From the NCBI GenBank assembly GCA_000182565.2, contig KQ257459.1: 64,000 nucleotides of DNA; one strand, given 5' to 3'. The first letter of the stretch is position 1. The number at the start of each line of letters is the position of its first letter. Position numbers and translations under genes: made by a program. Source of the DNA: Spizellomyces punctatus DAOM BR117 (Eukaryota). Of this stretch, positions 4,595-60,298 are shown in pieces. The notes below the pieces were generated by a model. That model was not told where the DNA came from. It did not search any database and saw only the letters and a program-made list of their open reading frames with translations.

Positions 4595-6969
4595 ATGGAA
4601 ACCACATCAGATCCAGCCGATTTCTCCCCTCTCACATTAAAAAGTATCATCGGATTTAGTGGTAAGACTCTAATTTTATCAAACACGGAAAATAGTACCA
4701 GTCAATTAACTGTCTCCAACAGGTTCTGTCCCTCAAGGCCACATCAAGCACCCAGATGGAATTCATACCATTTACTCCCTGGGATCCACAGTCGTGATCA
4801 ACGACAACCGTCGACTTCATGCTCAAGAGTTTATGCAGGGACATACGAATGCTGTGAGCTGTTTGGCGGTGGATAAGAGGGGTAAATTGATTGCGAGTGG
4901 GCAGGTTACGCATATGGGATTCCAGGTATGTAGTGGTGCAGTGAGATCAATTACATAAGGTGATTTGTTAATATTAAATGGCCAACACTAGGCGGATATT
5001 ATTATCTGGGATTTCGAAAGCCGTACGCTCCTCCACCGGTTCAGTCTCCACAAGGTCAAAGTCCAATCTCTCGCATTTTCTCCAAATTCCCTCTATCTTG
5101 CCTCTTTGGGTGGTGAAGATGACAATAGTGTCATTGTCTGGGACCTTCAAAAGGGCGCCGCCATTTGCGGGGCACCCGCCTCAAAAGACTCAACAGGAGC
5201 CGCAAACTGTCTAGCTTACTTGAATCAAGATGATACGTCGTTTGTAACTGGTGGGAATGGGACATTGCGTGTTTGGGAATTGAATGTTGCGCAGAGAAAG
5301 GTTCGACCTTCGGATGTGCTTACGGGCCAGATTAAGCGGGTGGTCAAGTGTGTTGTTGTGGATGAAAATGACGAGTACATGTACTGTGGAACGACTACCG
5401 GAGACTTGCTGGAGGTTAAAGTTGCCACGAGGTTATTTAAGCAGGCTGGACCACCAAAGGAAAAGGTAGAGTGCTCATATTTGCGGCTTTACGCATTCCA
5501 AATGACGAGACCTGATCGGTCGGCAATGTCATATGGTACAGGACCTCTTCAGCATGGGTGTGCTCTCCATCGCTCTCGCCCCCGCGCATAACTGCGTAGT
5601 TGTTGGCTGTGGAGACGGTACCATTGCTGCTCTTAAACTCCCTAAACTAAATATCATCAAGTAAGTCTCATCTTGCGACAAACCCAATTACGCCAAGCAC
5701 TTCATAAACTATTACTATATTTTCAAAAATAGGCAAACAAAAGTCAGCGGAAGCGTCACATCCCTTACGTTTGATACACCGGCACATCTGTATGCGGGTA
5801 CATCCTACTCAAACATTTACTACATGTCCGTTCAGGATTTTGAACCCATTTTGAAGTCAACATGCCACTATTCTGCAGTAAATGATATCGCATTCCCAGA
5901 GTAAGACCCATGATAAGTTGCTCATGACTATTCACCGTTGAATGTTTCAACCTTAAAACCTAGGGACTCGTCAGACGTCTTTGCTACAGCATCTGACACC
6001 GATATCCGTATTTGGAACGCACATACCTCTCAAGAGCTGTTGCGAATTGCGGTGCCTAATTTAGAGTGCAAATGCATCACGTTCAAAAAGGATGGTTCCA
6101 GCTTGATTAGTGGTAAGCTGCAACCGAAAATCCTAAACACCTGATGCAAACACAAGTCTAAGCAACTTTTTTGGCATTATAGGCTGGAACGATGGCAAGA
6201 TCCGAGCCTTTGGGCCCCAAACTGGCCGCCTTCAATACGAAATCACCGATGCCCACAAAAAGGGTGTCACCGCTCTAGCAGTTACGTCTCCCACCAGCCC
6301 ACATTCCCCAGCCTTCCGCATCGTCTCGGGTGGTTCAGATGGTCAAATCCGAATCTGGTCGATAACACCTACCCATCAAACCCTTCTCGAAACCCTTAAA
6401 GAGCACAAGGGAACGATTACGGCCATCAAACTCCGTAAAAACAATCTGGAATGTGTATCGAGTTCGGCGGATGGCAGTTGCATTGTGTGGGACTTGTTGC
6501 GCTTTGTGAGAAATCAGGTTTTGTTTGCTCCGAGCTTTTTTAAGAGCGTTTGTTATTACCCGGACGAGAGTCAAGTTTTGACCAGTGGGACAGATCGCAA
6601 GGTGCGTAATTTGGCCATGTAATTTGTCCGTGGTTCTCCCCTTCTGCCACCTGATGATAGGATCTGTCATTGGACAAATAGGTAGCGTATTGGGAAACCT
6701 ACGATGGTACTCTCATCCGCGAACTTGAAGCCTCCCAATCCGACACCATCAATGGCCTCGACATCTCCTCCGACGGACAACACTTTGTCATAGGCGGAAG
6801 CGACAAGCTCGTCAAGATCTATCGCTACGAAGAAGGGTCAGTTGACTATGTCGGGGTCGGTCACTCAATGGATATCACACAAGTCAAGATTTCGCCGGAT
6901 CAGAAGAACGTGGTGTCAGTTAGTGCGGATGGTGCGGTGTTTGTATGGAACTTTCCTCATGGCGCGTGA
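4595..6969 (+). CDS. CFAP52: Cilia- and flagella-associated WD40 protein 52 (WDR16), multi-exon
   Basis: LTLKSIIGFSG start, GGEDDNSVIVWDL..AICGAPA, YCGTTTGDLL, many WD repeats, GT-AG introns, TGA at 6967-6969. Confidence 0.9.
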
Positions 6970-17060: not shown

Positions 17061-17415
17061 CCTTAATTGCTGACTGCTGAGTAATGTAAGAACTGAACAC
17101 TTGCAGTATTGATCCATAATGAGGAATGTCACAGTCATAGCTCATGTTCGTGAGAGAGAGACAATAGGCATAGTGTGTGGGCAAAAAAGACTGTCAGTCT
17201 GCAGATAGATGCAGCCTCTGGATTGAATGAGATGACATGCAAGATGCCTCCCTCGATTTAGGCAAATGAACTATGCACAAAAGATGCTCAACGGGTCCAA
17301 TATTTGCGGCAATGAACAGATTGCAACTATCATCCCTTGCAGTCATCTATGAGAGGAATATTCTGCAGTTGCCACCTGCATGATGCTCCATGACTCATTT
17401 ATCCACTCTTTTTTC

Positions 17416-17683
17416 TATATAAACCCCCCTCTTTGCTGCCCCCCATCTTGTTCTTTACCCTCGACTCGCAAGCATCTGCCCATGCTCAAGTCTCAGTCCA
17501 TCATGAGAATGCCACTCTGGTGCCGAGGACCTCGCCCTCCCGACAACAGCAACAACATAACCCCTTGCAAACGCTGCTACTACTATATTGCTACGATTGC
17601 AGGTATATCCTTATGATTTTTCCCACGCGCATATTACCAGTCTAATTCTGACTTTACTAGTATCTGAAACATCCTCCGACTAA
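17416..17683 (+). other. Small TATA-driven spliced unit, copy 1 (possible 47-aa microprotein containing WCRGPRPPD)
   Basis: TATATAAA 17416, ATG 17482, 58-nt intron 17603-17660, TAA 17681-17683; homologous to 59711-60021. Confidence 0.45.
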
Positions 17684-18462
17684 GAATTTCGGAATCAAAG
17701 GGCTAGTAGGATTTCTCTCGTGGTGGTGGGCTTAGTTACCCGGTTGACCAACCGTAACGTTATCGCATGTGTAATTAGGCCTAGTAGTAGTTTGTTACTT
17801 GTAAGGAGTTAGTTAGCTAGTTGGCTTTTCCGAATCGGTTCTCGCCGGTTCATTCCCTGGTGTGCGAGGCACTGACATTTGTTTTTGCCAAATACACTAA
17901 TCAAATAAGTAAGAGCTATGGATGTGCTTTGGCCATCAGTAGCGAGTTTATATTTGTCACCTCCGACTCAACCAGTGTGGTTCCATCCGCATTTGGTATC
18001 TCTTGCGCGTTACCGTGTTTCTCTGAATAGCATGACGCTTGAGGGTTGAGCACAAACGTCAAGCAACCAGAAAGCAAAAGGTAGGGTACAGCAAGGATAT
18101 TTGTAAAAACAAAGACATGCACATTTAAAGAAAGCAGCAAACGTCCAATACCTCCTGCTAGTCTTTGGCATTATGGGGGGATGGAGCAAGAAGAACAAAA
18201 CCAGGGGATGAACCCAAGGAGTCAGGGAGCTTCCAAAAAAGAAAAAAAAAAAGGTTCCTACCATCGTGCGTAGAACGATCGACATGATTCATTTCGAATT
18301 GGGTCATCATACGCGGCGCGTGCTTCGCGGAAAAAAAGGCACACAAAACGTTTCTAGTTACTTTATCAAAGCTATAAAAGTACCAGTTGCAAATCATGTC
18401 ACCATCCCCCTTTAGACGACTGTAGCATACAGTAATAGATATTTTCATTTTTTACATGCAGA

Positions 18463-21710: not shown

Positions 21711-21783
21711 AAGAAATGATATTTTTTAATATTGGTTTTTTAATGGGTGGGGTAAACAGTAGGTAATCATTGTTAATCAGAAA

Positions 21784-21787
21784 CATA
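21784..21787 (+). promoter_or_regulatory. Fanzor target-adjacent motif CATA at the left junction
   Basis: aaaCATA|GTGCGG; CATA is the TAM reported for SpuFz1. Confidence 0.8.
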
Positions 21788-21946
21788 GTGCGGAGCCGAT
21801 GGGTATTGGCACTAGTACAAAGATTCCAACCAATTTAATCATAATTTTACTCGATTTAGACTCATGAACTATGGTTTGATTCAAAAAATCCTATGTAAGT
21901 CATCGTCCATTTTCCCAGGCTTTCATCTTTTTCTACAGATATCATC

Positions 21947-22816
21947 ATGCCACCAAAGAAGAAGCAAAAGCTCGAAAGGCTCGAAAAACTTGACAAACCC
22001 ACCTTACATACCTGCAACAAGACGTCCTTCACAAAGGCTTTCTTGCCTAATGAGACCTACCAGCAGCGTCTTCTAGATTACATCGCCATCATCCATCAAC
22101 TCGCTGACCATGCTTCCCACGCTCTCAAATTCTACATCCTATATGCACCAACCTTTCCCACGGTAAATGAAGATACAATTGAAGCGATTCTCTATCTTCT
22201 CAACAAGGGGGAGGCTTGGCATCCAAGAAAGGAAGCAAAGAAGGCATGGCGGGATTGTTTGCTGCCATATGTTCAACGGTACTGCCACATCATCAGCTTC
22301 GTTCATCCAAATCTACAAAAAGAGCAGCAGTCAATCAATTACCTGACAGCGAGTATGATGACGAACCTGAAAGTCAACGTTCAAGAGCATTTCATGCAGA
22401 TGCTCCTTCGGTATATCAATCTGCGGCTCGATGTGAAGGGACAGAAGCAGCGACTGCCACTGAAAAGCGATGCATGGAAAGCCTTCTTTACTCGGCTACG
22501 CTACTTAAAGTCAGTTTTTCTTTTTGATATCGTGCCCGAGTCGCTGGATGACTTGACTGCTGAAGAGAGTGAGCTTCTAGAAGAGATGTGGTCCTTCATT
22601 CCCCTTTCCGACCAGCCGCTTGCATATTCGGTTGCTGTTGACCCTCTCGCTTTCTTTCCTGCTTACTGCAAACTCTCTGTGCTGTATGAACGACATGGCT
22701 TCCGTCGGTTCAGCGCAATACCTCTTCATCGGTCTCTGATTCAGTCCCATATTCGCATCGACACGGTCATCCTGTACCAGCATATCCTTTGCATCATGCG
22801 ACGGGAAGCGGAAACT
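21947..22816 (+). pseudogene. Fz1: Fanzor1 nuclease, N-terminal 290 codons (NLS-like start, REC/WED)
   Basis: MPPKKKQKLERLEKLDKPTLHTCNKTSF... closely matches SpuFz1 as recalled; cut at ...RREAET by an LTR. Confidence 0.93.
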
Positions 22817-23417
22817 TGTAACGGATTTTTTGTTGGTAGACTACGGTAAAGACAACTTGGGTCTCCTAGCAGGTTGTGTGGGTGTCCGTACTAGGAATCG
22901 TAGTCTCCAAATCCTTTCTTTGGGCGTCGGTAGCGACTTGAGGGCGAGAGGCAAGGAGAGTCGGTTAGTTGTGAACCGAGCAGGATTTAGAGGCTTCGGT
23001 ACGGGTGATCAGGCCGTTGAAGCGCTCTGTTAGGTTCCTGTTAACCTAAGATTGGAGTTGAGAAGCGAGTTATGGGGATTTTTTTGTCGCTACGGCTTCT
23101 GCCCCCGACTTATTTTATTGAATACATCCTTTTTATACAAGATTCTTGGATAAACTGTTAAACTAAACTAAACTAATGGGTGTCGCTGCACCGCAACTGA
23201 TTTATTGGTGGCGGTACCGATCTCTTCCTTTTCCGCACTGGCTCGGGCCTCCACAGGTTGTACGAGGCACGCTGAAATCTAATGCGCCAATTGCCATTCT
23301 CCGAACCGGTTTTTTCGGTCGCGGTAACCCAATCGGTGGAGTTGGTCACGCGATTCGTGCTTCCCGCGTCCGATTTGGGCTTACTCGCGATCTCTCGAAG
23401 ACGTCCTCGTCGTTACA
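22817..23417 (-). repeat. 3' LTR (LTR-A, 601 bp); polypurine tract at 23418-23427
   Basis: TG..CA ends with 6-bp inverted termini; AAAGGGGGGA precedes it on the minus strand. Confidence 0.95.
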
Positions 23418-23474
23418 TCCCCCCTTTGAAGAGCCAATGCACCGGCGCTCCGAGCGGGGGTGTTGGGACGTCAA

Positions 23475-26400
23475 TTACCAGGTCGGTACCGGATCTGTGG
23501 GGTCCGCTTCATCTGCATCTTGGTTCACGACCCAGATGATACTGGCACGGCCACCGACGTTGCAACAAAACCAGATTTGATCTGTTGCGGTACGAACGAT
23601 GGTACCCGGGGTCACGTCGGGGCCAGTTCTGGTTACGTAGAGGGCCGTAAAGGTCTCCGCGGCCCTTTTCAGGTTTGTCGCGCGGAAATGGTACTCCGCG
23701 TGCTCGTGATGTCGGGGTCTGGTGAGCCTTGCAGAGGCTTCCGCTGCGTTCGCCGTCCTTAGGAGCACCGTCCTAGCTGCTTCAATGACGGCGGACGCAA
23801 ACTCGTGGGCGTCGTCATTCGGCCAATCGGTGAACGGAGCCGTTTTTCGGCTTCCCGCCTCATGTTGGGGAACCCCGCGGTCGAGCCAAGCGGCGCACGG
23901 AGCTGGGCGCCCTCTTTTTCCGGGTTTTTTCGCGTCGGCAACTATTCCGACCGCTGCTTCACCACCATCGGTGGCCTTGCTGTAGGGGTCCGCGATGTGG
24001 TTTGTGAGGGGCTGGCCCACCGCGTAAGGTTTCGGAGCGTCGACTCCCAGCCAAAACTCATGCCCTGGAGTCTGCAGCGGCGCGTTGGGGTTGGTCCGAA
24101 GCTGATGAACCCAGGAGTGAACCCAGGTAGCGATCGCAACCCCAAGGCGATCCAGCACGCCCTCGGCCTCGAAGTCGCCCGAGTCTTCCTCCCAAGGGTA
24201 GCCGGACATGTACGTGGAGGGTACGCTCACTCCTGCTTGTCCTCTGAGATCGGTGTTCATTGTGTTAGAAATGGAAGTTTTAGTTTCGGTGTCGATAGAA
24301 GGGGTTTGCGAAGCAGAGTGAGTGTGTAAGGGAAGTAGGTCGTGGGCGGTTGAAGAAGAAAAAAGAGGGGGAGCGTGCAGGGGCGTCCTTTTAAGGTCGT
24401 CGCCGGCTGATTTTGACAGCTCGGACGCGCGTAAGCGTGATCGGGAGGCTTGGTGTGGCGTTCTCGACTGGTGAGGTAAGCCACGCGAAACTGGTTTTCT
24501 TTCTGGTGAGAGGGCGTGATTATCACGTGAGCTATCGTCCGGATAAACCGCGAAGCATTGGTGGTCGGAAGCATAAGCCGTATCTTCCGGGGCGTCGCCT
24601 GCAAGGCTGACTACCAAAGAGTCCTCTACTAGCGCGCTAGTGGGAGCTCTGGATCTCCAGTACTCTTCTAAGGCTTCGGAAGCCTCTGTTAGGGCTTCCT
24701 CTGGTTCCCAGGTATCCTCATGGGGTGGGTATCCGGACCAACGTATTCGAAATTGACGTTTTCCGCGCCTGGTTCGATGGTCTACTATCGCTTCCACTTC
24801 AAACTCGCCATCTGAAGCGTTGGAATCCTCCGCTTGTGCTTCCGCGACCTTTTCCTCAGTTTCGGCGTCGACAGGCTTCTGGTACGGACGTAATTTCGAT
24901 ATGTGAAACCATGGATGAAGTCGTCTCATCTTGTCTGGCAGTTTTAACTCGTAGTTGTCGCGGAGAGGGTTACAGTCGGTCACCGTGACTGGTCCCAGCC
25001 ATTTCGGAGCGATCTTGGACTCATACCCTGCTAGGTTTTTCGTGCTCAGAAGCACCTTATCTCCTCTCCGGAACTCCAAATGTCGTCGCGATAAATCGTA
25101 ATATCTTTTCTGCGAATCCTGGGCTTCGATCATCAGATCTCGGATAAGGATGTTTAGGTCGCCGAGGTGTTTACAGAGCTCCTCCGCATCTGCATTTCTG
25201 GTTTCTGACGGCCTTTCGACGATGTCCGCCAGTGGATTGTGGGGCTCATAGCCTAGGTCCATTCTGAATCGCGTCATTTTTGTCGCCTCGTGTACCGTAT
25301 CGTTGATAATGAATTCCGCAACCGGAAGAAAGGTGTCCCAGTCGTCTAATCGGGTGTTGACCATTGTGGTAAGGACCTGCAAGACCGTTGCGTTGTCTCT
25401 TTCTGATTGTCCATCACCTTGAGGGTGGTAGGCTGTGGTGAGCTCTTGATTAATCTTTAGGTTTTTGCAGACCTCCTGCCAAAATCGACTCGTAAATTTG
25501 GAGTCGCGGTCCGAGATAATGGTCTCCGGGATGCCGTGCAATGGGACGTAGCGCTCTATAAAGAGTTCCGCGACCTGAATAGCTGTCGCAGTGCTCTTGA
25601 GGGGCCATACGTGGATCCTCTTTGAGCATTTACATGCTATTAACCAAAAGGCGTCGTACCCTCTGGAAGTAAGTGGGAGCTTGGTTACGAAGTCAGTCGT
25701 GATGACTGTCCAGCGTCCCGGAGCTGGTGGTATGGGTTTCAGCAACCCCGGAATCAGTTGCGGTACCCTTTTTGAGCGTTGACAGGTTTCACATCCTGCG
25801 CAGTGTTTTCTGAAATCTTGTGCCATTTTCGGCCACCAGACTTGCGCTGCAGCTCTAGCGTAGGTTCTTTCGAATCCGAAGTGTCCTCCCCCCTCGTGAA
25901 AAAGCTTGCGCACCTCAGGGGTGCAAGCAGGGGGCACGTAAAGGCGCCAAAGGTCTTCGGAGACTGAAAAACGGTGCCACAGCAGGTTATCTGCACGTTG
26001 CCAGTCCTGAAGAAAGCGCGTGTCGGCGGTAGTGTACGTGTCGGGGCTGGTCTCCCATAGGAGCGTGCGGGCCTGTTGGGCTATGGGGTGGAGCTGGCCG
26101 GTGAGGCCAGCGCGGATGGCGGCAATGAGTGCAGGCTGTAAGGCCAGACGAAAGACGGCATCTGCCAGTGTCGAGGAAGGTGCGAGAGCAGCTGGTGTGG
26201 TGCGCAGCCATCGTCTTCCGCGTTTCGACACCCATATTTGGGTCGCGGTGGAGCAGAGTAGGGTTTCCGCTCCTAGTAGCCGTGAAAGTGTATCAGCGAC
26301 AATGTGAAAACGTCCTGGTTTGTGAACGATTGTCATCCATTCGGACCAGTAACTAAGATCGAGGGCCCAGCGGAGAAGCTTACGGTTCTCGCCTTTGTAT

Positions 26401-29400
26401 TTAGCGAGCCACAAAAGAGCTCGGTGATCAGTAATGACCGTGAAAGGCAGGCCTTCGAGGTATGGGCGGAGTTTTCCGAGGCCCCAAATGAGGCATCCGG
26501 CCTCGAGTTCGACGGGGGGGGCCTTCTTTTCCGAGGTGGTGGTGCCTCGGGAATGGTAGCACAGCGGGCGTTTAGAAGCATCCGGCTGTAACTGTTCGAG
26601 CGTGACATTAAACGCTGTGTAGGAAGCGTCACTGTGAAGGGTGTAGGGGAACCCTTTTCTGGGTGCCGCGAGCACTGGAGCTGTTGTCAGAGCCTGCTTG
26701 GCGGCTGCGAAGGCAGAGTTTCGGGAATCGGTCCATGAAACTTCACGCTTCGCGATAAATCTGCGCAGACCTTGGTCGGGGCGCTTGCGAGCAAGGCGTC
26801 CGACACAAAAGGGGTCAATGGGTAAGTCCGCCAGCGATGATTGGCGTAGATTGACCGCCGGTAGGTCTGAGGAGCTAGATTTCGGATGTTGCGAAACCTC
26901 AAATTGGGCTCCGGTGGCTGTGATTGTAGGGGCCACCGCCGTGTCGAGCATGGATGGTGAATTGAGCTTTTCAGCGCCTTTCTTCGGGTCAGCGCGACCC
27001 TTTTTAAGGTCTCGGTATTCGCGAACGCCCTCTTGGATAGCGTCTTGCAGGGGTCGGACGAGTTCCGCGTAGCGAGAAATGAATTGGGCGTAGAACCCTA
27101 GGAGACCCACGAATGACCATAGGTCACCTATGAATTTGGGTTGTGGCCAATCGACTATGGTTGCGACCTTGTCTGGATCGGTAGCGAGACCCTGAGAGGA
27201 GGCAACGAAACCGAGGGCCGTGAGCTGGTGAAAGAGCCATTGACACTTGTCGAGTCTTAGGGTGAGTTTGGCTCTGGAAAAGCGGTCGAGCCAGTCCGCG
27301 ATGGCGTCTAGGGCTTCCGCGGCTGTCTCCGCTCGTGTGTGGATATCGTCGACGAAGTTGTTGATATTTCGCCATTTGGAGGGACCCAAGGTGTCGTCCA
27401 TCACCCGACAGAAGTGCGAGGGGGCAGTCTTGGGTCCGAAGGGCATAAAGAGTGGTTCGTAGATGCCGTCATGGAGTCTGAGCGCGAGCCATTTGCGTAC
27501 CGACGCATCGGTGATGGCGATTTGGTAGAATCCTTTGTTTGCGTCACCTCCCGATATGTATCGGAATGGGACTGCGACGATCCAGTTCAGGATGTCGAGC
27601 ATGATGGGAAAGGGATATGGATCCCAGGCCATGCAGTCGTTGGCTCGGCGATAGTCGAAGGCTACGCGCGGGGGTTTGTCTGCATAGCGAATGATAACAG
27701 GATCGCTGGCGAAGGTTACTTCGGTGGTTCGTTTCCACCTCTGAAGCCCCATCATGGTGTCTCGCTCCGTCTCGAGGGCTGTCCGCTCCAACGGAGAGTA
27801 CGACCGTGGCCTCGAAAGGGGTGGCGGAGCCGAGATAAATCGAGGCGCATAAGGAATCTTGGTGTAGTTCCCTATGAGATGACCCTCATAGCTGAAGGCT
27901 TGATGGAAGTGTCGTAGAATGTTGATTAGGGCCCAGACCACGGGTTTGGGTCGCTTGAGATCGACGTGGAAACGTTCCGCGTCTTTTAATTGGGCTTCGA
28001 AGGCCCCTGGAGCCCTCTCCGTAGAGTCGAGGTTCCATTTGTTCCGAAGTGTCTGCCATTCTTCTTTGGAAATGTTCTCTTCGGGGTCCGCAACCGAATT
28101 ATGGGTCGCGGTGGACAGTTTGAGGCCTAACGGGACCGTTGAGCTAGCAGCGGTGGCCTCAAGAGGGTTTTCGATGAGAAAAGTTTGGGCTGCCACGCGC
28201 GTCTGTCCCGTGATTAACATGGTTAATCTAGACTTCTGAGCTTTGGCTTTGGTCAGCCGTGGCATTGACACATCCTTCATGAATTCACCCTGCTTGGTCT
28301 TGTATGGCGTGCCGCGCATGTGATCGGTGTCCAGCTCATCCGTTATGGAGCAGGGGATAAGGATGTCTGGATTCTTGAGCGTCACCGCGAAACTGGGTAA
28401 CGGGGGTTCCTGAACCAAGGTTTGGAGTTTCAAATGTCCCAAAACGTCGTTGGCTAGGATGATGAGAGGTTTCCCGTACGCGATGACCCGAAAGTAGGCG
28501 CGGAAAGTCAGGTATTCTCCGCCGCGGCCTCTGAGGGAAGTTTCGAGGCATACTGTCTTGGTAGATGAGATACGTCCACCAATGCCGTTGAAAGCCATCG
28601 TTTCCGCATCCTGCAAATCGGTTTCGGAGAACAGAAGGCCTTGGTACGTGTCGGAAATCAGAGACTCGCAGGCCCCTGTGTCTAGTACCACAGGTGCCCA
28701 GAGCTGCGCGATGACGGCTAGCGTCCAGCAAGGCTGCGTTTGGGTCTTAGTCTGGCTTTTGAGTACATCGCCTAAATCTACTGAGTAGAAGGCGTTGATA
28801 GAAGGCACCGCGATCTCGAAATGGGGCGCGATGTCGTTAATTGTTGCTTCCGTAGCCTTGATCACACTCTCAAAGTGTTCTCTAGTTTTGTCGTTTTGTG
28901 GTTTTGTTGTTTTATTCTGGCGAGCAACTTGTTCGATAGCCAGCATGACTATACGCGTCCGTTCGCTCTCTTCGTGTCTTTGGAGACGTGGATGGTCTTT
29001 AACGTGCCGAAATTTGGGGTTTCCGCGACGATAATAATAGTCTGAGCGAACGATATTGCCTGTCAGGAGAAATGCCACCAGTTGCAGGTTGGCGTACGCA
29101 TCAAAGATAACAGGATCTTCAGAGCTCCACATCAAGAATTTCTCGCGCTCGTCGAGCTTTATCCAGGCAAGGAGAATCAAACGAGGGGTACCGTCTTCTC
29201 GGACCTTTCGCAGGATTCGATCCTTGTCAGCTTCGGCTGCGGCAGCGATGTAGAGGTGGTGGGAACTCCACGCGACTGCGTAGGGGTCGTTCCCGAGGTG
29301 CCCGGCGCCTCGCTTCGGTTCTTTGGCGAAGAAGCTGAGCGCGCGGGGGTTGTTGCCCATCATCAGAGCCACTTGCGGGGTGCCCCAGATGATGGCTATG

Positions 29401-30953
29401 TTGTCCCAGACTCGGTCCCAGCCCTGCGTGGGCGTGCGGGGGTCCTCTTCCTTGGTCACCGTGACCTTGGAAAGAGGTGCGGTCATCAAAATTGTTGATT
29501 CCGAGTGCTTGGGTGAATGAAAGAACCCGATGGTGTGGAATCCTTGATTAGCGGCTTCCGTTCTTTCCAGTTCCGAAGCCGAAAAAAGAGTCTCGGTGGT
29601 AGCGGACGTCGAGTCCAGCTCCACTATGTACGCCTTCTTCGATTCCTGTTTGGGTTTCCAACCTGAGGGCATGGGTGCTCCATATGGTCCTTTCTTTCCA
29701 TCTTCAGGATCTTTTCGGTTCGGGTTCTGCCAGCAGAAAACATTCCAATGCTTTTTCTGACAGAATTTGCAGGGTGCCGGTGGTTCCTTGTTGGGGTCCG
29801 GAACCATCTTCTGAGGACCATCGCGACCCTTTTCGGGGTTTCCGGTTTTATGCGGAGCCGTCTGCTTAGGGCCTTTGTCGGTTCCGGTCTTTTGTGACTT
29901 CTTCTGAGCTTCTGCAGCACCGCTGTAGCAAGGGTCTCGTTTTCTGGTGTCATCAGAGCCGAAATAAAGGCGCAGGAAGTCTTTTAATTTGGTCAGGTTC
30001 GTGACGTTACAGGATTTGACCATGATTTGGATGTCGCTGGGCAATTGTTCGACTATTAGGTCGAAATGCTGGTCAGCGGGACATTCTATGTTTGCCCGGT
30101 CGCCATAAGCGAGGCGCCGGAGATGAGTTTTGTGGTCGATGAACGCGAGAAAGCTGCGAAATTCTTTGGGGTTCGCATGGCAGCGCACATATTCGGTTTT
30201 GCGCTTGGACTCGGTTAGGGGATCTCGGAACTCTCGAAGCAGTTCCTCTTTCCACCTTTTCCAGGTCCATGAGCGAGTTTCCTGGGCTTCCAGAGTGTAA
30301 AACCAAGCGTCAGCAGGGGTTTTCTCGGCTATCATGGCTGGTAGGAGCTGTACCATCCTGGCATCCGACGTTGCGCTAACGTTTTGAAGAAGTTGGACTT
30401 TGTTAAGCCATTCTTCAACGTCTTGGTTTCTTCTGCCCGTAAACTCGGGTACGTCCTTTGCTTTCAAGGAATCGACCTTGGTGTCGCTGGCCCACGGGGC
30501 CGCTGGCACTTGGATTGGAGGCACCGCACCTGAAAAACTTGGTTCGGTACGCTCCCTTGGTGTGTCCGCCGTTTCCCACGGGGTTGCGGACCGTTCTCTT
30601 GTAGCTCGTGCTATGGGAGGTTGTTCAGGCAGCGGGCGATGTGCTAGGGCTTCTAAGGCTCGTGCGAGGCGCTCATCCGCCGCTGTCTGACGTTCGGAAA
30701 GCCTATGAAGCTGTTCCGTAAGGTTTTGAGTTGCCAACTGCGTTGCAGCAGTCGAGCGGGCAATGTCTTCTTTTAACGCTGCCACTTCAGAGGCCATCGT
30801 GGCCAAGTTAGGGGCTTCCGGTTCGACGGAAGTGGTCCCTGAACGCCTTGGGCGTGTTGCGGGAGGGACTTCGACGTCCTCCGCAGGACCCTGACTACGA
30901 GTCTGGATCACAGGTGAGCGGCCTCGCGTTGGTGAGCGTTCGACCGGCATCAT
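23475..30953 (-). CDS. Gag-Pol polyprotein (gag, Zn knuckle, PR, RT, RNase H, IN, chromodomain, extra domains)
   Basis: Uninterrupted ORF; CKFCQKKHWNVFC, LDTGA, FVDD, SDAS, GGHFG..CETC, TTDFVTKLP, SDRDSKF, FEVEAIVDHR..RWSGYPPHEDTWEPEEAL; first ATG 30953. Confidence 0.95.
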   Translation of the reverse strand: MMPVERSPTRGRSPVIQTRSQGPAEDVEVPPATRPRRSGTTSVEPEAPNLATMASEVAALKEDIARSTAATQLATQNLTEQLHRLSERQTAADERLARALEALAHRPLPEQPPIARATRERSATPWETADTPRERTEPSFSGAVPPIQVPAAPWASDTKVDSLKAKDVPEFTGRRNQDVEEWLNKVQLLQNVSATSDARMVQLLPAMIAEKTPADAWFYTLEAQETRSWTWKRWKEELLREFRDPLTESKRKTEYVRCHANPKEFRSFLAFIDHKTHLRRLAYGDRANIECPADQHFDLIVEQLPSDIQIMVKSCNVTNLTKLKDFLRLYFGSDDTRKRDPCYSGAAEAQKKSQKTGTDKGPKQTAPHKTGNPEKGRDGPQKMVPDPNKEPPAPCKFCQKKHWNVFCWQNPNRKDPEDGKKGPYGAPMPSGWKPKQESKKAYIVELDSTSATTETLFSASELERTEAANQGFHTIGFFHSPKHSESTILMTAPLSKVTVTKEEDPRTPTQGWDRVWDNIAIIWGTPQVALMMGNNPRALSFFAKEPKRGAGHLGNDPYAVAWSSHHLYIAAAAEADKDRILRKVREDGTPRLILLAWIKLDEREKFLMWSSEDPVIFDAYANLQLVAFLLTGNIVRSDYYYRRGNPKFRHVKDHPRLQRHEESERTRIVMLAIEQVARQNKTTKPQNDKTREHFESVIKATEATINDIAPHFEIAVPSINAFYSVDLGDVLKSQTKTQTQPCWTLAVIAQLWAPVVLDTGACESLISDTYQGLLFSETDLQDAETMAFNGIGGRISSTKTVCLETSLRGRGGEYLTFRAYFRVIAYGKPLIILANDVLGHLKLQTLVQEPPLPSFAVTLKNPDILIPCSITDELDTDHMRGTPYKTKQGEFMKDVSMPRLTKAKAQKSRLTMLITGQTRVAAQTFLIENPLEATAASSTVPLGLKLSTATHNSVADPEENISKEEWQTLRNKWNLDSTERAPGAFEAQLKDAERFHVDLKRPKPVVWALINILRHFHQAFSYEGHLIGNYTKIPYAPRFISAPPPLSRPRSYSPLERTALETERDTMMGLQRWKRTTEVTFASDPVIIRYADKPPRVAFDYRRANDCMAWDPYPFPIMLDILNWIVAVPFRYISGGDANKGFYQIAITDASVRKWLALRLHDGIYEPLFMPFGPKTAPSHFCRVMDDTLGPSKWRNINNFVDDIHTRAETAAEALDAIADWLDRFSRAKLTLRLDKCQWLFHQLTALGFVASSQGLATDPDKVATIVDWPQPKFIGDLWSFVGLLGFYAQFISRYAELVRPLQDAIQEGVREYRDLKKGRADPKKGAEKLNSPSMLDTAVAPTITATGAQFEVSQHPKSSSSDLPAVNLRQSSLADLPIDPFCVGRLARKRPDQGLRRFIAKREVSWTDSRNSAFAAAKQALTTAPVLAAPRKGFPYTLHSDASYTAFNVTLEQLQPDASKRPLCYHSRGTTTSEKKAPPVELEAGCLIWGLGKLRPYLEGLPFTVITDHRALLWLAKYKGENRKLLRWALDLSYWSEWMTIVHKPGRFHIVADTLSRLLGAETLLCSTATQIWVSKRGRRWLRTTPAALAPSSTLADAVFRLALQPALIAAIRAGLTGQLHPIAQQARTLLWETSPDTYTTADTRFLQDWQRADNLLWHRFSVSEDLWRLYVPPACTPEVRKLFHEGGGHFGFERTYARAAAQVWWPKMAQDFRKHCAGCETCQRSKRVPQLIPGLLKPIPPAPGRWTVITTDFVTKLPLTSRGYDAFWLIACKCSKRIHVWPLKSTATAIQVAELFIERYVPLHGIPETIISDRDSKFTSRFWQEVCKNLKINQELTTAYHPQGDGQSERDNATVLQVLTTMVNTRLDDWDTFLPVAEFIINDTVHEATKMTRFRMDLGYEPHNPLADIVERPSETRNADAEELCKHLGDLNILIRDLMIEAQDSQKRYYDLSRRHLEFRRGDKVLLSTKNLAGYESKIAPKWLGPVTVTDCNPLRDNYELKLPDKMRRLHPWFHISKLRPYQKPVDAETEEKVAEAQAEDSNASDGEFEVEAIVDHRTRRGKRQFRIRWSGYPPHEDTWEPEEALTEASEALEEYWRSRAPTSALVEDSLVVSLAGDAPEDTAYASDHQCFAVYPDDSSRDNHALSPERKPVSRGLPHQSRTPHQASRSRLRASELSKSAGDDLKRTPLHAPPLFSSSTAHDLLPLHTHSASQTPSIDTETKTSISNTMNTDLRGQAGVSVPSTYMSGYPWEEDSGDFEAEGVLDRLGVAIATWVHSWVHQLRTNPNAPLQTPGHEFWLGVDAPKPYAVGQPLTNHIADPYSKATDGGEAAVGIVADAKKPGKRGRPAPCAAWLDRGVPQHEAGSRKTAPFTDWPNDDAHEFASAVIEAARTVLLRTANAAEASARLTRPRHHEHAEYHFRATNLKRAAETFTALYVTRTGPDVTPGTIVRTATDQIWFCCNVGGRASIIWVVNQDADEADPTDPVPTW

Positions 30954-31097
30954 TCTCGGTTTCGTGAAGTTCTGTCTCCGAAACGAGAGAAAAGGTTTCC
31001 GAGTAGCTACCTGAGCGGATCTCGGTTTGCGCAAGAGTTTCGGTACGACCGAATAAGGTTTTCAGCTGAATTTGAGAGGGGAAGGCGGTTCGTCGCG

Positions 31098-31108
31098 CTT
31101 CTCCACCA
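31098..31108 (-). promoter_or_regulatory. Primer-binding site TGGTGGAGAAG (tRNA-Ala-like); second copy at 32357-32367
   Basis: Directly abuts the LTR; complementary to a tRNA 3' end ...TCTCCACCA. Confidence 0.75.
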
Positions 31109-31708
31109 TGTAACGGATTTTTTGTTGGTAGACTACAGTAAAGACAACTTGGGTCTCCTAGCAGGTTGTGTGGGTGTCCGTACTAGGAATCGTAGTCTCC
31201 AAATCCTTTCTTTGGGCGTCGGTAGCGACTTGGGGGCGAGAGGCAAGGAGAGTCGGTTAGTTGTGAACCGAGCAGGATTTAGAGGCTTCGGTACGGGTGA
31301 TCAGGCCGTTGAAGCGCTCTGTTAGGTTCCTGTTAACCTAAGATTGGAGTTGAGAAGCGAGTTATGGGGATTTTGTGTCGCTACGGCTTCTGCCCCCGAC
31401 TTATTTTATTGAATACATCCTTTTTATACAAGATTCTTGGATAAACTGTTAAACTAAACTAAACTAATGGGTGTCGCTGCACCGCAACTGATTTATTGGT
31501 GGCGGTACCGATCTCTTCCTTTTCCGCACTGGCTCGGGCCTCCACAGGTTGTACGAGGCACGCTGAAATCTAATGCGCCAATTGCCATTCTCCGAACCGG
31601 TTTTTTCGGTCGCGGTAACCCAATCGGTGGAGTTGGTCACGCGATTCGTGCTTCCCGCGTCCGATTTGGGCTTACTCGCGATCTCTCGAAGACGTCCTCG
31701 TCGTTACA
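31109..31708 (-). repeat. Internal LTR (LTR-B, 600 bp)
   Basis: Near-identical to LTR-A, with three private differences seen by eye. Confidence 0.95.
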
Positions 31709-31985
31709 GATATCTGTTCTTGATGGTGATCTTGTTCAGAGCCCTGTAGTCCACACACATCCTCAAAGACCCTTCTTTCTTCTTGACAAAGAGGATGGGT
31801 GCTCCAAATGGGCTCTTGGATGGTCTGATGTGGCCTGCCTCCAGAAGTTCTGAAAGCTGCTTCCTCAGTTCTTCTAACTCCAAAGAAGAGAGGTGGTAGG
31901 TTGGTCTCCAGGGGGTCTGGTTGGGGTCACTGAGTTCAATTCTGTGATCTACTGATCTCTCAGGGGGAAGTCCTGGGGGAATGTG
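31709..31985 (-). pseudogene. RT N-terminal fragment of a different Ty3/Gypsy element
   Basis: [70 protein letters not shown], truncated by LTR-B. Confidence 0.9.
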
Positions 31986-32182
31986 ACAGAATTCTTCTGT
32001 CAGTGCTATGGTTATACTGGTTAGATGTGGTTCCAAACTAGTGGTCACATGACTTTGCTGATGGTGTCAGCATTCATTTGACCAGAATTAGATAAATAAG
32101 CAGATTTAGCCATTTCTGGCTAAATTAGATGAGTATCCTGACACACTGGCATCTGCCCCTTTCAATCAAGTGGCACAGTGTA

Positions 32183-32318
32183 TTTAGGATGACTTGTCTC
32201 ACTTGTGATTGGCTATAAATGGTGCAATAGGCTGACAAATAGTTTAGGATGACATGTACAAGATCTGATTGGTTGCAAATGGTGCAATAGGCTGACAAAT
32301 AGTTTAGGATGACATGTA
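32183..32318. repeat. 60-bp tandem repeat, about 2.3 copies
   Basis: TTTAGGATGAC at 32183, 32243 and 32303; AAATGGTGCAATAGGCTGACAAATAG twice. Confidence 0.9.
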
Positions 32319-32367
32319 TGAGTTCTGAATTTGAGAGGGGAAGGCGGTTCGTCGCGCTTCTCCACCA

Positions 32368-32967
32368 TGTAACGGATTTTTTGTTGGTAGACTACGGTAA
32401 AGACAACTTGGGTCTCCTAGCAGGTTGTGTGGGTGTCCGTACTAGGAATCGTAGTCTCCAAATCCTTTCTTTGGGCGTCGGTAGCGACTTGAGGGCGAGA
32501 GGCAAGGAGAGTCGGTTAGTTGTGAACCGAGCAGGATTTAGAGGCTTCGGTACGGGTGATCAGGCCGTTGAAGCGCTCTGTTAGGTTCCTGTTAACCTAA
32601 GATTGGAGTTGAGAAGCGAGTTATGGGGATTTTTTTGTCGCTACGGCTTCTGCCCCCGACTTATTTTATTGAATACATCCTTTTTATACAAGATTCTTGG
32701 ATAAACTGTTAAACTAAACTAAACTAATGGGTGTCGCTGCACCGCAACTGATTTATTGGTGGCGGTACCGATCTCTTCCTTTTCCGCACTGGCTCGGGCC
32801 TCCACAGGTTGTACGAGGCACGCTGAAATCTAATGCGCCAATTGCCATTCTCCGAACCGGTTTTTTCGGTCGCGGTAACCCAATCGTGGAGTTGGTCACG
32901 CGATTCGTGCTTCCCGCGTCCGATTTGGGCTTACTCGCGATCTCTCGAAGACGTCCTCGTCGTTACA
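32368..32967 (-). repeat. 5' LTR (LTR-C, 600 bp)
   Basis: Matches LTR-A except for one missing G near 32886; followed on the minus strand by the PBS and leader (32325-32367 = 31066-31108). Confidence 0.95.
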
Positions 32968-32970
32968 ACT

Positions 32971-33989
32971 GTTGAAAGGTCGACTTATGGTTGCGCATCT
33001 GTAATCTGCGGAACAAGGCTTTTAGATCTCGTTGTGGAATGTGTTTTGAAGGCTCGATCACGACAGACGGTACCTTGGTGTCAGTTTACTTGAAACATCC
33101 TGAAGCTGACAAGTATGGAAAGTGCAGCGGCGGAGGGAAAAAGTCAGCAAACACAACGGAGGCAGAGGTTAAAGCGCAATATGTGGAGAAAAACTTACCT
33201 GCTTGTCGAGTAGCAGAGAATGTTGTTGTTATCGACCCAAACAAGCGCGACATTCTCTACTGCCAAGACAACAGTGGTATGACATTTTGCTACACCGCCA
33301 ACCAGCGAGCCGTGGAGACTGGAAGCCGTCGATTTGCAAAAGAACGGCAGCAGATGAAGAAGGAAGCGGGAATGGACCTCATAGAATCACGTATCCCTAG
33401 TCACAAGACAATGAACCTCATGGACTTCATGCGCTATCTCCTTGTTCGGTGCGCTGATTGGGATCGTCGCAAGGAATTCTACTCCCACCCTGCCCACACG
33501 CGATGGAAATGGCACTCCTTCATCAATCGGCAGTGAAGCGAATCAGACCTCATATCCAACATGCGCAACAAGTTTGGGAACTTTACCGTTGTGATGGGTG
33601 ATTGGAGCGACGCTGGTCGAACTGCGAGATTTCAGACCTCATCAAAGACAAAAGGCTGGCGCACCCTCTTTAAGCGGAACAGGATCAACTGCTTCCTTCT
33701 CGACGAGTACAAGACCTCATCTGTCTGCCCTCACTGTTCCTCTGGCGTTGAAAAAGGCTTCAAAACACGACCTCATTCAAGACCTTGGCGCCGTCGCGAA
33801 GGCAAGATTGAAAAAGTCCACGGATTGCTGGGTTGTACCAACCCTAACTGTTTACAGCAATCCTGGACGATGCGCTACTGGAACAGGGACACGCTGAGCA
33901 CCTGCAACATGCTGATGATTGTGCAATCAATGTTGGATGGGCACTGTAGACCAGAAGTGTTCAGCAGGAGTGTTCCAGCCGTAGCTTAG
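32971..33989 (+). pseudogene. Fz1: Fanzor1 nuclease, C-terminal part (RuvC I/II/III and Zn finger)
   Basis: VVVIDPNKRD, MGDWS, LLDEYKTSSVCPHC, GCTNPNC, WNRDTLSTCNM; 1-nt frameshift near 32976 and in-frame TGA at 33534-33536. Confidence 0.93.
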
Positions 33990-34003
33990 ATTGGTTAGAT
34001 TAG

Positions 34004-34093
34004 GTTTTCCGAGCCGGTTGTCGCGCGGTTCAATCCCTGGTGCGGGTGCTAGTGCCAATACCCATCGGCTCCGCACTAATCATTTATTCTGTC
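34004..34093 (+). ncRNA. Fanzor omega-RNA: scaffold 34004-34078 plus flank-derived guide from 34079
   Basis: GTTTTCCGAGCCGGTTGTCGCGCGGTTCAATCCCTGGTGCGGGTGCTAGTGCCAATACCCATCGGCTCCGCACTA; GAGCCGGT pairs with ATCGGCTC; overlaps the right TIR; 3' end approximate. Confidence 0.88.
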
Positions 34094-34526
34094 ACTAGTA
34101 TAAAAATATTCACACATTTTATTTTTTTACATGAGCCTTCTCTGTTAACATGCGCGGCAACTAAGCTCACATGTCCAAAGTGTAGATGTAAGCAGTTGTA
34201 GTCATAACTCGTAATCAGCGGCCGCGATCTTTGCCGCAGAAAATGTCACATTTGGGTTTTCCCACCCCCCCAAAAATTCCCACACCGTCAATAATAAGGA
34301 AAACTCTAAAGTTATTTTTAGCTTTTTTTTTAAAGTGATGTTGGGATATTGTTGAGTCTTTGCAGGAATCATCTTAAGAACCCTAATGGGCTTGAAAGAG
34401 TTCGATGGCATGAGTAAAGGGTGAACGATAAACAACCAAAAAACGAACAACAACAACAACAACAACAACAAGGACATAGAGTTGAAAAAACAGACCCTTG
34501 ACAAGGCACCCTCACACTCTAAAACC

Positions 34527-43420: not shown

Positions 43421-46400
43421 ATGCGCATCTTGTCATTGATTCCCATCTTGCTCTTGACGACGACGCAGGACTTTGGTCATGCCGCCCCCATGGTAGAAAC
43501 ATCCCTCGCTCCAGGTAAACCGTTAGGATTTGGAATGATTACATTGTCGATCAAATCTGTAACACGCGTCGTTTTTTTAATGAATAGAGGGGACACCGAC
43601 TGGCGGTGCGAGCGGCATTGAGGTCTTGTCGACTCCACAATCATCATCTCCTGTCGCTTCTCAAAAGCCAAAAAAGTGTCGTAGAAAAAAGAACAAGCAC
43701 TCGCAAGTGCCAACACCTACTACGACATCCAGCATCGAGATTAGTGTAGCTACACCCACGGGAAACAATTTCATTAATGAACCACAGGGTACTCCTCAGG
43801 GTATGCCTCAGGGTGCACATCAGGGTAACCCTACCGATCCAAACCCGATTATCACACCCGATCGCTCCGATGAGACGCGTTTGCCCATCCAAATCATTCA
43901 GACGGGTGTCCCCATCCCGATGCCCGTCATTGAGCCCTCAAAGCCCGTAGAGACGGGCATGCCCAGAGACAATGGAATACCCACAGAGACTCCCAGAGAG
44001 CGAGAAGAAGAGATGCCTGTCCAGATCTCGACCATTCCCTTCCCTACCGGCATGCCAAACGAAAACAATGGTAACCGCGGGAATAACAACATGCCCCACG
44101 AGAACAACGGTAATCGCGGGAATAACAACATGCCCCACGAGAACAACGGTAATCGCGGGAATAACGGAAACAACAACAACATGCCACACGGGAATAACGG
44201 TAATGGCGGAAACAACGGAAACAACAACAACATGCCACACGAGAATAACGGTAATGGCGGAAACAACGGAAACAACAACAACATGCCACACGAGAATAAC
44301 GGTAATGGCGGAAACAACGGAAACAACAACAACATGCCACACGAGAATAACGGTAATGGCGGAAACAACGGAAACAACAACATTGTCACCACCACCGTCC
44401 TCGAAACTGTCATTCAAACCATCACCGATTCCGCCGCATGCACAACCACCACCATCAACAATGGCGGAAACAACAACAATGGCGGTTCTCAATCCACCAC
44501 CACTGTCCTCGAAACTGTTGTCGTCACTCGATCGGATTCTGCGGCGTGCACGACGACTTTACCCACGCCCACGCCCACGCCAGGTGGAAACAATGGCGGA
44601 AATAACGGTGGTTACAACAATAACAACGGCAACAATGGCAATAACGGTGGTTACAACAATAACAACGGCAACAATGGCAATAACGGTGGTTACAACAATA
44701 ACAACGGTAACAAGGGCAATAACGGTAACAACGGAAACAATGGAAACAAGAACGAAAGTAGAAACACCCCCACCCCAACGCCCACTCCAACACGTACCTC
44801 TGAAAAGGGTTCCAATCTGGTCAAAAAACGACCGCTGCACCCACGCCGACACCTACCCCCGGAAAAGGACTTCAACCCGGTGACAACAAAAACGACGGTG
44901 GTGCTGCCAAGGACAACAAGAACAACGGCGGAGCTGCCAAGGACAACAAGAACAACGGTGGGGCTGCCAAAGACAACAAGAACAACGGCGGTAACAACGG
45001 AGGAGCTGCCAAGGACAACAAGAACAACGGCGGCAACAACGGAGGAGCTGCCAAGGACAACAAGAACAATGGCGGTAACAACGGAGGAGCTGCCAAGGAC
45101 AACAAGAACAATGGCGGTAACAATGGAGGAGCTGCCAAGGACAACAAGAACAACGGCGGTAACAATGGAGGAGCTGCCAAGGACAACAAGAACAACGGCG
45201 GTAACAATGGAGGAGCTGCCAAGGACAACAAGAACAACGGAGGAGCTGCCAAGGACAACAACAACAACGGTGGGGCCGCGAAAGACAACAAGAACAACGG
45301 CGGTAACAATGGCGGTGCTGCCAAGGACAACAAGAACAACGGTGGTGCTGCCAAGGACAACAAAAACAATGGCGGTAACAATGGCGGTGCTGCCAAGGAC
45401 AACGGCGGAGCCGCAAAAGACAACAAGAACAATGGCGGTAATAACGGGCGGAGCCGCCAAGGGAGGAGACAACAAGAACGTCTCCCCCGGTGCGGCCAAA
45501 TTCTGCCAAACTTTGGCAACCTCCCCATCGGTGACGGCACCCAAATTCGCACCGGCTTCTGCTCCCAGACCGCCCAAGGTGCCATCCCCTCTGCCAACAA
45601 ATGGTCTCGACCGTCATTGTCCAACCTGAAAACGAGGCCACAATCCCCATCGGTCAAGACTTTAAAGTCCAGATCAATGTAGCTAATCTCCAAACCGGCT
45701 TCTTTTCTGACCCCCAAACCCTCTACTACGCCCTCCCCCAACAACTCAACGCCCAGGGTATCATCCAAGGCCATCAACACATTACCATCCAACGCATCGC
45801 AGCCAACGCCAACGACAACCTCGCGGCCCCCGACGCCCAAATCTTCCAGTTCTTCAAAGGTCTCAATGATCCCGCCGATGGATCTGGCAATATGGAGACA
45901 ACCGTCCCTGGAACGTCATTCACAACCTCTGGACCCGGGGTCTACCGTATTTGTTCCATGTCGGGATCGTTTTCGCATCAGCCGCTTGTGATGCCCGTTG
46001 CTCAGCGTGGAGCCCAGGATGATTGTATTCGGGTCAATGTTGTTGCGCAAGGGAATAAGCAGGCTGGTAACAAGCAAGCTGACAATAAGCAAGCCGACAA
46101 CAAGCAGGCGGATAACAAGCAAGCTGACAATAAGCAAGCTGACAATAAGCAGGCGGATAACAAGCAAGCTGATAATAAGCAAGCGGGCAACAAGCAAGCT
46201 GACAACAAGCAGGCGGATAACAAGCAAGCTGATAATAAGCAAGCGGGCAACAAGCAAGCCGACAACAAGCAGGCGGATAACAAGCAAGCTGATAATAAGC
46301 AAGCGGGCAACAAGCAAGCTGACAACAAGCAAGCTGACAACAAGCAAGCGGATAACAAGGAAGCTGACAATAAGCAAGCTGACAATAAGCAGGCGGATAA

Positions 46401-46683
46401 CAAGCAAGCTGACAATAAGCAGGCGGATAACAAGCAAGCGGATAACAAGCAAGCTGACAACAAGCAAGCGGATAACAAGCAAGCGGATAACAAGCAAGCT
46501 GATAATAAGCAAGCCGATAACAAGCAGGGCGACAATAAGCAAGCTGACAATAAGCAGGCGAACAACAAGCAAGCGGACAACAAGCAAGCTGACAAGAAGC
46601 AAGTGGACAACAGGAACAACCGTGGCAACAATGGCAATGCAGGCAATGCCAACCGTAACCGAATGACCCGTCGGTTCCACTAG
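43421..46683 (+). CDS. Large secreted protein: N/G-rich repeats, conserved fungal domain, (DNKQA)n tail; three apparent frameshifts
   Basis: Signal MRILSLIPILLL; one intron; domain ..YYALPQQLN..GHQHITIQ..FFKGLND..YRICSMSGSFSHQPLVMPVAQRGAQDDC; frame slips near 44815, 45446 and 45512. Confidence 0.8.
46051..46605 (+). repeat. 15-bp coding tandem repeat (DNKQA, about 37 copies)
   Basis: GAYAAYAAGCARGCN units. Confidence 0.95.
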
Positions 46684-46976
46684 TCCAGCCACATAGATAG
46701 CTGCATACAAGTTTTTTCGAGAAAGTATATATAGACCTATTTTGAATCAACAGTTTTTTGTAGATAGGGTAGGTACATAGAAGAAGGGAGAGGGATTGTA
46801 AGATGACATGTCCATTTTTTGTTTCTTGTGGGTTTTTCATTGTAAAGTTGAAAATAGAGAAAAGTTTTGAAAACAGAGTTTTGGCATTTGCAGTTCACGT
46901 AAAACTACCAAGCGCGTCCTTGGTTTTTGACGCGTCCAAATCTCTCTCGCCTCTCAACCAACTGGCCATTCCGACC

Positions 46977-58963: not shown

Positions 58964-59710
58964 GGATTATCTTATTAGGTAAAAGGAGATGTTGGGATCC
59001 CCTCGCCCCGTATATAGCTCCTCAACGTCGCTATATTTCTCCCGCCTGGATACAAGAGAAGTGGAAAGTGTTCCGCGTGCGCACTTGCAAGCGTCGCCGT
59101 TTCAGACGACGAAACCGGAGTAAGAACAACGGGCCGCAAAATGCAGATTGGAAGATCAACGGCTGTCCCTAAAAATAGCTCTGGTCAGTGTCCTAAGCCG
59201 CACATGCCGCATTCAACTCAACTGATTGCATTTGATCGTGATTACTAAGCGATCAGGACTCATGACTCACGCACTGATATCAGCAGGTTCAAACGATAAA
59301 TACACCACGAGTAAGACGTATGTATTATTTATTGTTGGGTGCATATAAGCATATCCATGTTAGCTTAAAATGAGAATCATGGAGTATCTCGTGTGTATCG
59401 CAGCGCTGCTCGCATTCGGTTTGAAATCAAGCAGCGTGCTGTGAGACAGCAAGACCCCAGTTGTACTGTAGTGTAGAGGTGACAGAAACTGGCACTAGCT
59501 ACTACACCAGGGAATAAACCGGCGACAACCGGTTCAGAAAAGCTAACTACTACCAGGCCGTATACACGCAATACGTAACGGTTGGTTCTAACCGGATAAT
59601 TGCCCACCACCACACGCGGTCCCTACTAGGCCTTGATCTGGAACTCTTGATGGCATTGAAGCCAGACTCTTGCATCCAGGAGCAAATCGACTGGGCAGCG
59701 TCACAAGCCA

Positions 59711-60021
59711 GAGGATGTTCAGTGACAAGGCTTGGAGACTACAAAAACTGCATGTCAGAAGATGACCCGATGACAAGAAATGCAAGAAATGCCATCGATA
59801 CATACCAACCAAGCTCAACTAATGTGGCAGCATAACAGCTTTGTTGGTTCCGAGGCTGCGCTGGTTCCAGTTGGTTGTAATCGGGTGGGCGAGGTCCTCG
59901 GCACCACCATCTGCAGAACTCTCATCGCGACTCGGTCCAATCATGAGAATGCAGATGATTTGAGAGTCGAGGATGGGTAAAGAGGAAAGAGGGAAGAGAG
60001 AGCAAAGGCCCCCTTTTTATA
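59711..60021 (-). other. Small TATA-driven spliced unit, copy 2 (paralog of 17416-17683)
   Basis: TATAAAAA 60021-60014; 25/26-nt core shared with copy 1; 58-nt intron 59805-59748. Confidence 0.45.
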
Positions 60022-60187
60022 GACCTTTGGCATGCGCCTCACCGCAGTTTTAAAAAAAACATTACATGCATGCCACACCGTTTTTGAGCGGGGGGTGCTG
60101 ATTATGCGATATGATTAACCGGATTAATCCGGATAATAATGGGTCCTAGTGCCATTTTCAATCGCCTCCACACTATGTACAGCATGT

Positions 60188-60298
60188 GCAGATAAAGATA
60201 GAGCATCACGTGAGTCATGTGGTGGTCCATCCATTCAATTCGGCGCCTCACATCCTTTGAACATCACATGACTCACGTGATGCTCGATCTTTATCTGC
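60188..60298. repeat. 34-bp inverted repeat (one mismatch) with 43-bp spacer
   Basis: GCAGATAAAGATAGAGCATCACGTGAGTCATGTG (60188-60221) against 60265-60298. Confidence 0.85.

Follow-up and report, generated by a model that had tools for sequence, protein, structure and literature searches.

A Spu-1 element interrupted by a retrotransposon

The window analysed here is a 64-kb stretch of Spizellomyces punctatus DAOM BR117 DNA (contig KQ257459.1). An inverted-repeat search identified two 33-nt terminal inverted repeats (TIRs) within it, at 21786-21818 and 34046-34078 (plus strand), which are 97% complementary and include a TA target duplication. The right one corresponds to the "end" feature of the published locus. 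The left junction reads CATA (21784-21787, plus strand), that is, a host CA followed by the TA duplication, and this is the target-adjacent motif reported for SpuFz1 (PMC10432273). The hallmarks of Spu-1 termini, namely TIRs of 30 to 33 bp, a TA duplication, and a CA preceding the left end, are all present. The element also resembles SPu-1 as described by Bao and Jurka (2013, PMC3627910): once its insert is subtracted it measures about 2.1 kb, with a single ORF, 33-bp TIRs, and a TA duplication. It differs from that description, which dates from a time when no RNA was known, in being interrupted.

Between the two ends lies a Fanzor1 gene in two pieces, both on the plus strand. The 5' part (290 codons, 21947-22816) is truncated by a retrotransposon and matches SpuFz1 (PDB 8GKH) with an E value of 5.7e-161. 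The 3' part (32968-33989, with a TAG stop at 33987-33989) matches the same protein with E values of 3.5e-90 and 2.1e-103; it was this PDB sequence search that identified its two pieces, on which Pfam returned no Fanzor or TnpB family. The gene is a pseudogene that retains the RuvC D, E, and D codons (33234, 33705, and 33888) and the four zinc finger cysteines (CCCC). An autonomous Spu-1 element would have an intact single ORF, whereas this one is broken by the Ty3 insert, by a frameshift, and by an in-frame TGA at 33534-33536, which agrees with the initial annotation of the local ORF as dead. The frameshift leaves the two halves one base out of frame near 32975, counting the visible 3-bp duplication, and intact copies in the published supplement have an extra A at that position (PMC10432273). 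These lesions distinguish the copy from the SpuFz1 and Spu-1 elements described by Saito et al. (2023).

The insertion is a Ty3/gypsy element spanning 22817-32967 on the minus strand, delimited by repeat comparison and labeled Ty3 in the published locus. Its gag-pol ORF has reverse transcriptase (RT), RNase H, integrase, and chromodomain matches. Three copies of its LTR, of 600 to 601 bp each (22817-23417, 31109-31708, and 32368-32967), are 99.3 to 99.8% identical and lie in a tandem or nested arrangement. LTRs so alike indicate that the break of the ORF is recent. The 659-bp piece between the second and third LTRs contains the same 43-nt primer-binding region, a tandem repeat of about 60 nt, and a short RT-like fragment (31704-32066) that had no Pfam match. 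Just 3 bp of the target duplication of the insert are visible.

The omega-RNA scaffold at the right end

The initial annotation had pointed to a 75-nt GC-rich segment that begins 14 nt after the Fanzor stop, ends at the TIR/TA, and is followed by 15 nt of flank, and had read it as an omega-RNA scaffold that extends across the right TIR and takes its guide from host DNA. Its letters and coordinates are correct. The segment (34004-34078, plus strand) overlaps the right TIR, has a GC content of 61% against 39 to 50% in the surrounding 1-kb bins, and shares 74 of its 75 nucleotides with the published SpuFz1 scaffold, the exception being T instead of C at nucleotide 62 (PMC10432273). Almost certainly, it is the right end of a Spu-1 (SpuFz1) Fanzor1 element, where the omega-RNA is encoded; its sequence is intact, and its RNA should be able to fold and bind in the manner of the published one. 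We base this identification on the identity to a published RNA and not on a fold score. The single difference falls between C40 and G70, a part shown to be dispensable, preserves pairing as G-U (pair probability, 0.95), and is common to the tested loci ID14, ID19, and ID20 (PMC10432273). Two other copies in the published supplement are identical to this one over all 75 nt, and the scaffold bases named in the section on the SpuFz1 cryo-EM structure are, by eye, the same here (18/18). Rfam gave no match for the segment up to an E value of 5. One metagenome match (1 of 99 candidate loci; 60% over 20 residues) was discarded as spurious.

A boundary of conservation at 34078 had been set as a test of the scaffold reading, and this boundary was found. 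The right ends were counted, like the promoter boxes discussed below, by reading the supplement of PMC10432273 by eye, and they comprise at least 34 of the Fz type; a degenerate ghost-like end, an extra TIR-only end, left ends, and repeat listings were excluded, and one or more right ends whose stem is deleted escaped the count. All 34 stop at CACTA and continue into 33 different flanks, two rows sharing one. In the RNA run X7, 154 reads diverge at 34078 (agreement, 0.48; left-end reads included). The flanks of other copies appear there as loose ends at 34078-34079, represented by these 154 reads and by 255-nt ends in X1 and X2, and an X1 contig follows the flank of one sister copy in the published supplement for at least 255 nt.

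The published RNA has 88 to 90 nt, of which 75 are scaffold and 14 to 15 are flank, and was found bound by SpuFz1 from four native loci (PMC10432273). With the guide length given there, the predicted guide of this copy would be the first 14 to 15 nt of the host flank (34079-34093, plus strand), which are predicted to be unpaired with a probability of 0.93 to 1.0. What would such a guide do? Cutting by SpuFz1 adjoins CATA and depends strictly on this motif (PMC10432273). The pre-insertion site here is CATA followed by the guide sequence. By analogy with TnpB, the complex would cut empty alleles carrying CATA and the flank, favoring retention of the element. At the occupied site this flank is preceded by ACTA rather than CATA, and that site would be spared. 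Within the 64-kb window, CATA followed by the guide does not occur. Eight letters across the right TA and the start of the guide are repeated at 21764-21771, 15 nt before the left TIR and with no CATA ahead, probably by chance. In the published annotation (offset 20561), a host mRNA begins on the same strand at 34256, 178 nt past the right end, which places the guide within the promoter region of that gene.

This locus, its family, the RNA, the structure of the RNA, and the idea of its use in trans are already in print. Supplementary file 6 of PMC10432273 contains this locus together with its flank, as number 39 under "Loci with Fz" and with the features end, fz, Ty3, fz, end (Saito et al. 2023); insertions of Ty3 in Fz loci are noted in the main text of the paper. 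The present copy shares with the SpuFz1 omega-RNA and Spu-1 of that work (PDB 8GKH) the scaffold, the two-hairpin fold, the CATA junction, the TIRs, and the protein. The position of the scaffold at the right end and a guide taken from the flank are also features of the TnpB omega-RNA (Nety et al. 2023, PMC10278001). Saito et al. proposed a repertoire of guides acting in trans (PMC10432273). For the ORF-less scaffolds known as ghosts such use has been biochemically established, and SpuFz1 supplied from a separate plasmid suffices in cells. Hence, the suggestion in the initial annotation that Fanzor proteins from other copies could load this RNA is not new.

Ghost Spu-1 elements (PMC10432273; PMC13434818) resemble the present copy in having a scaffold without a working ORF that can be used in trans, as far as the sequence of this copy allows the comparison. 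They differ from it by their own TIR, their own stem 2, and an ORF-less interior of about 550 nt. The end studied here has none of these traits: it is a canonical Fz-type end, orphaned by an insertion.

The window does contain other elements. An apparently complete ghost Spu-1 of about 707 bp (59469-60175, minus strand) has a CATA left junction, a ghost-type scaffold ending in CACTA, a TATA-like box, and a short ORF. A more diverged ghost-like element (about 17250-17899, plus strand) has kept stem-loop 1, and its left end has decayed. The two have a 31-nt interior stretch in common (17518-17548 and 59876-59906). Just beyond the left end of the former, at 60188-60298, lies a 40-nt inverted repeat (93%) with a 31-nt loop. 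We also noted a MITE-like element of 159 bp (2034-2192) with perfect 35-nt TIRs, unrelated to those of Spu-1, and TA at both ends; two identical direct repeat units of 300 nt or more (1-300 and 5619-5918, 5.6 kb apart), possibly another LTR pair; and tandem-repeat arrays of 51, 42, 30, and 15 nt at 44050-46700, probably a long low-complexity coding region.

Secondary structure of the RNA

The best predicted fold consists of stem-loop 1 (scaffold nt 8-28; 34011-34031, plus strand), a 6-nt linker, stem-loop 2 (nt 35-75; 34038-34078, plus strand), and a free guide, with no pseudoknot. This two-hairpin fold is the one described by cryo-EM, where the linker is A29-C34 (PMC10432273). Stem-loop 1 is the protein-contacting hairpin, and stem-loop 2 is mostly made by the right TIR. 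The fold stands out modestly from shuffled sequences (z = -1.8; equally good shuffles, 6/200 and 8/200 in two runs). When this scaffold is aligned with the two ghost copies in the window, which makes three sequences and is too small a sample for covariation statistics, stem-loop 1 is paired in 24 of 24 cells. In the published ghosts, stem-loop 1 shows a two-sided change from G-C to A-U (by eye).

A different fold, with a long-range stem closing inner hairpins, had been proposed in the initial annotation. Its two 8-nt arms (34011-34018 and 34064-34071) exist and are complementary at 8 of 8 positions, with one G-U pair, so that this part of the proposal stands. Yet it is extremely unlikely that the RNA adopts this fold. 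Forcing the long-range stem gives -22.3 instead of -27.4, a cost of 5.1 kcal/mol, and its pair probability is 0.0008. In the three aligned sequences it is paired in 16 of 24 cells and shows no two-sided change. The solved cryo-EM structure, obtained with an RNA identical at 74 of 75 positions, has two stems separated by a 6-nt linker. We therefore retain the fold with two hairpins.

Nature has provided a variant of stem-loop 2. In one near-sister Fz copy (PMC10432273, supplementary file 6) it has lost 21 nt, so that the scaffold closely resembles the trimmed one made by engineering; an X1 contig spans this deletion and continues into the flank of that copy (loose end at 34048).

Expression of the interrupted copy

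How could an RNA be made from such a locus? By analogy with the bacterial systems, the omega-RNA would normally be cut from a longer transcript that covers the ORF and continues across the TIR. TnpB generates omega-RNA by cleaving its own mRNA, and the 5' end of the bacterial AmaTnpB RNA comes from a longer transcript (PMC10278001), as we infer here; the accessible parts of the published descriptions held no demonstration that the SpuFz1 omega-RNA is processed from mRNA. Four of nine sequencing runs were covered (X1, X2, X7, and X9), X1 and X2 being of no recorded kind. The plus-strand depth of Fz-type reads in X7 passes from the ORF into the scaffold without a step (97, 86, and 107, the last being 396 minus 289 at 34031). 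No sharp start or end stands among the ends listed, and reads of the ghost type reach beyond the scaffold on its upstream side. This continuous depth and the upstream ghost-type reads fit trimming from a longer transcript.

At this locus, a 10-kb insert in the opposite orientation splits any such transcript from the promoter of the element. For this reason, we think it probable that the locus is mostly silent or very weakly expressed, and that its guide is competent but mostly unused. In the part of X7 that was covered, about 6 in 100 of the run, none of the 1,314 reads on 33500-34400 reaches 34089 on the plus strand. The X7 plus-strand depth is zero at 34089-34119, the X1 and X2 contigs have nothing there, and X9 has no reads on the region. 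These results should be interpreted with caution. A hand calculation from the 66 plus-strand reads at 34065 and at least 34 ends gives about 1.9 expected X7 reads per locus, and with equal shares zero reads would occur with a probability of about 0.14, which makes the negative weak. The cDNA library also loses RNAs of 90 nt, and the zero at this guide is to be read accordingly. Furthermore, X7 depth is zero over the neighboring flank and the start of the host gene as well, so that the locus may be absent from the X7 sample.

Alternatively, the 3' half of the locus could still be transcribed, from a cryptic or LTR-antisense Pol II start, with an intact Fanzor protein from other copies trimming and loading the RNA in trans and guarding the site against loss. 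Several facts would accommodate this scenario, which we nevertheless regard as rather unlikely. Ghost scaffolds from ORF-less loci function with SpuFz1 encoded on a separate plasmid, and a trans repertoire has been proposed by Saito et al. Sources of intact protein exist, since nine copies with intact ORFs (PMC3627910) and 19 full-length Fz genes (PMC10432273) have been described. Ghost-type reads dominate the scaffold in X7, with 289 of 396 at 34031. A published mRNA model spans 33376-34045 (annotation of PMC10432273, offset 20561); it may reflect transcription of the 3' half or may derive from sister copies. Finally, the scaffold has not decayed. Yet an intact scaffold needs no selection after so recent a break, no X7 plus-strand read extends to 34089, and the five Spu loci that the published work expressed in yeast do not include this one. 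The X7 plus-strand reads that lack the common G at 33861 (2 of 22) are not specific to this locus because a sister copy carries the same letters; locus-specific expression inferred from that position was rejected. We therefore keep to the reading of a locus that is mostly silent.

In X7, most scaffold reads (33996-34060) are of the ghost type, and 181 reads diverge after 34042. Their stem-2 sequence is absent among the ghost matches listed, which suggests another highly expressed ghost subfamily.

A possible Pol III promoter

One oddity appears to be unpublished: a pair of promoter-box look-alikes straddles the start of the RNA and might, though we think it improbable, form a Pol III promoter. 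A putative A box of the tRNA type overlaps the stop codon (33982-33994, plus strand), and a putative B box (34027-34037, plus strand) combines the 3' arm of stem-loop 1 with the 6-nt linker at 34032-34037. These look-alikes were defined with consensus patterns picked once the sequence had been inspected. With the same patterns, their distance falls within the spacing of type 2 promoters, in which the boxes lie 31 to 93 bp apart. Past the guide, a run of seven T's (34122-34128, plus strand) would be a Pol III terminator if the boxes work, and is otherwise ordinary AT-rich flank. The omega-RNA could then have an internal type 2, tRNA-like promoter, with the A box over the stop codon, the B box in the scaffold, transcription starting some 28 nt upstream of the mature 5' end, and the T run as terminator. 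Such a promoter of its own would let expression survive the Ty3 insertion. No proposal of a Pol III promoter in Fanzor elements was found in the literature searched, to the extent of its accessible text.

The chance of this reading being correct is, in our opinion, about that of a long shot, and the evidence divides as follows between the window and the family. Within the window, a strict pattern combining both boxes has one match, and none in 100 shuffles; a relaxed pattern has the same sole match, with 0.4 expected per window, or about 5e-4 in any 150 nt of a single strand. Still, the pattern was post hoc, and either box alone is at chance level. The A box sits in a TAG-rich repeat, a run of four T's lies at the mature 5' end, and X7 shows no step in depth near 33975, although this library may miss Pol III RNA. 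The A-like and B-like boxes are 32 nt apart, the commonest spacing in yeast tRNA genes, whose type 2 promoters provide the parallel (PMC11724288). The likeness in sequence to tRNA genes does not extend to a cloverleaf (ARAGORN found no tRNA, and Rfam no match) or to boxes kept across the family.

Among the published copies, 30 of 34 right ends of the Fz type have an intact B box, the main determinant for TFIIIC (PMC11724288). A more indirect argument is that the native 5' extension of the RNA raises activity in human cells where unrelated hairpins do not. However, a perfect A box is present in 16 of 34 copies and both boxes in 14 of 34 (by eye), the A box being imperfect in ID19 and in ID16, the best-studied copy. 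In the ghost copies examined, the C and/or the A that are invariant in a B box are missing, and yet ghosts provide most of the X7 reads. The omega-RNAs of Parasitella have kept the hairpin and have no B box (PMC10432273), which indicates that the stem and the linker account for the letters. Conservation of the boxes in expressed copies, expected of a type 2 promoter, is thus not what these elements display.

Implications

Were the promoter real, a eukaryotic OMEGA element would not depend on its mRNA for making its guide, and its scaffold would serve as an RNA structure and a DNA promoter at once. Dead copies like this one would then keep supplying guides in trans. Neither a second local promoter nor trans loading in the native host was found to be shown in the accessible parts of the published descriptions. 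Since the 10-kb insert on the opposite strand separates the scaffold from the promoter of the element, the locus offers a convenient natural experiment on the biogenesis of native Fanzor guide RNAs: any RNA traced to it would establish both a second, local promoter and trans loading in the native host.
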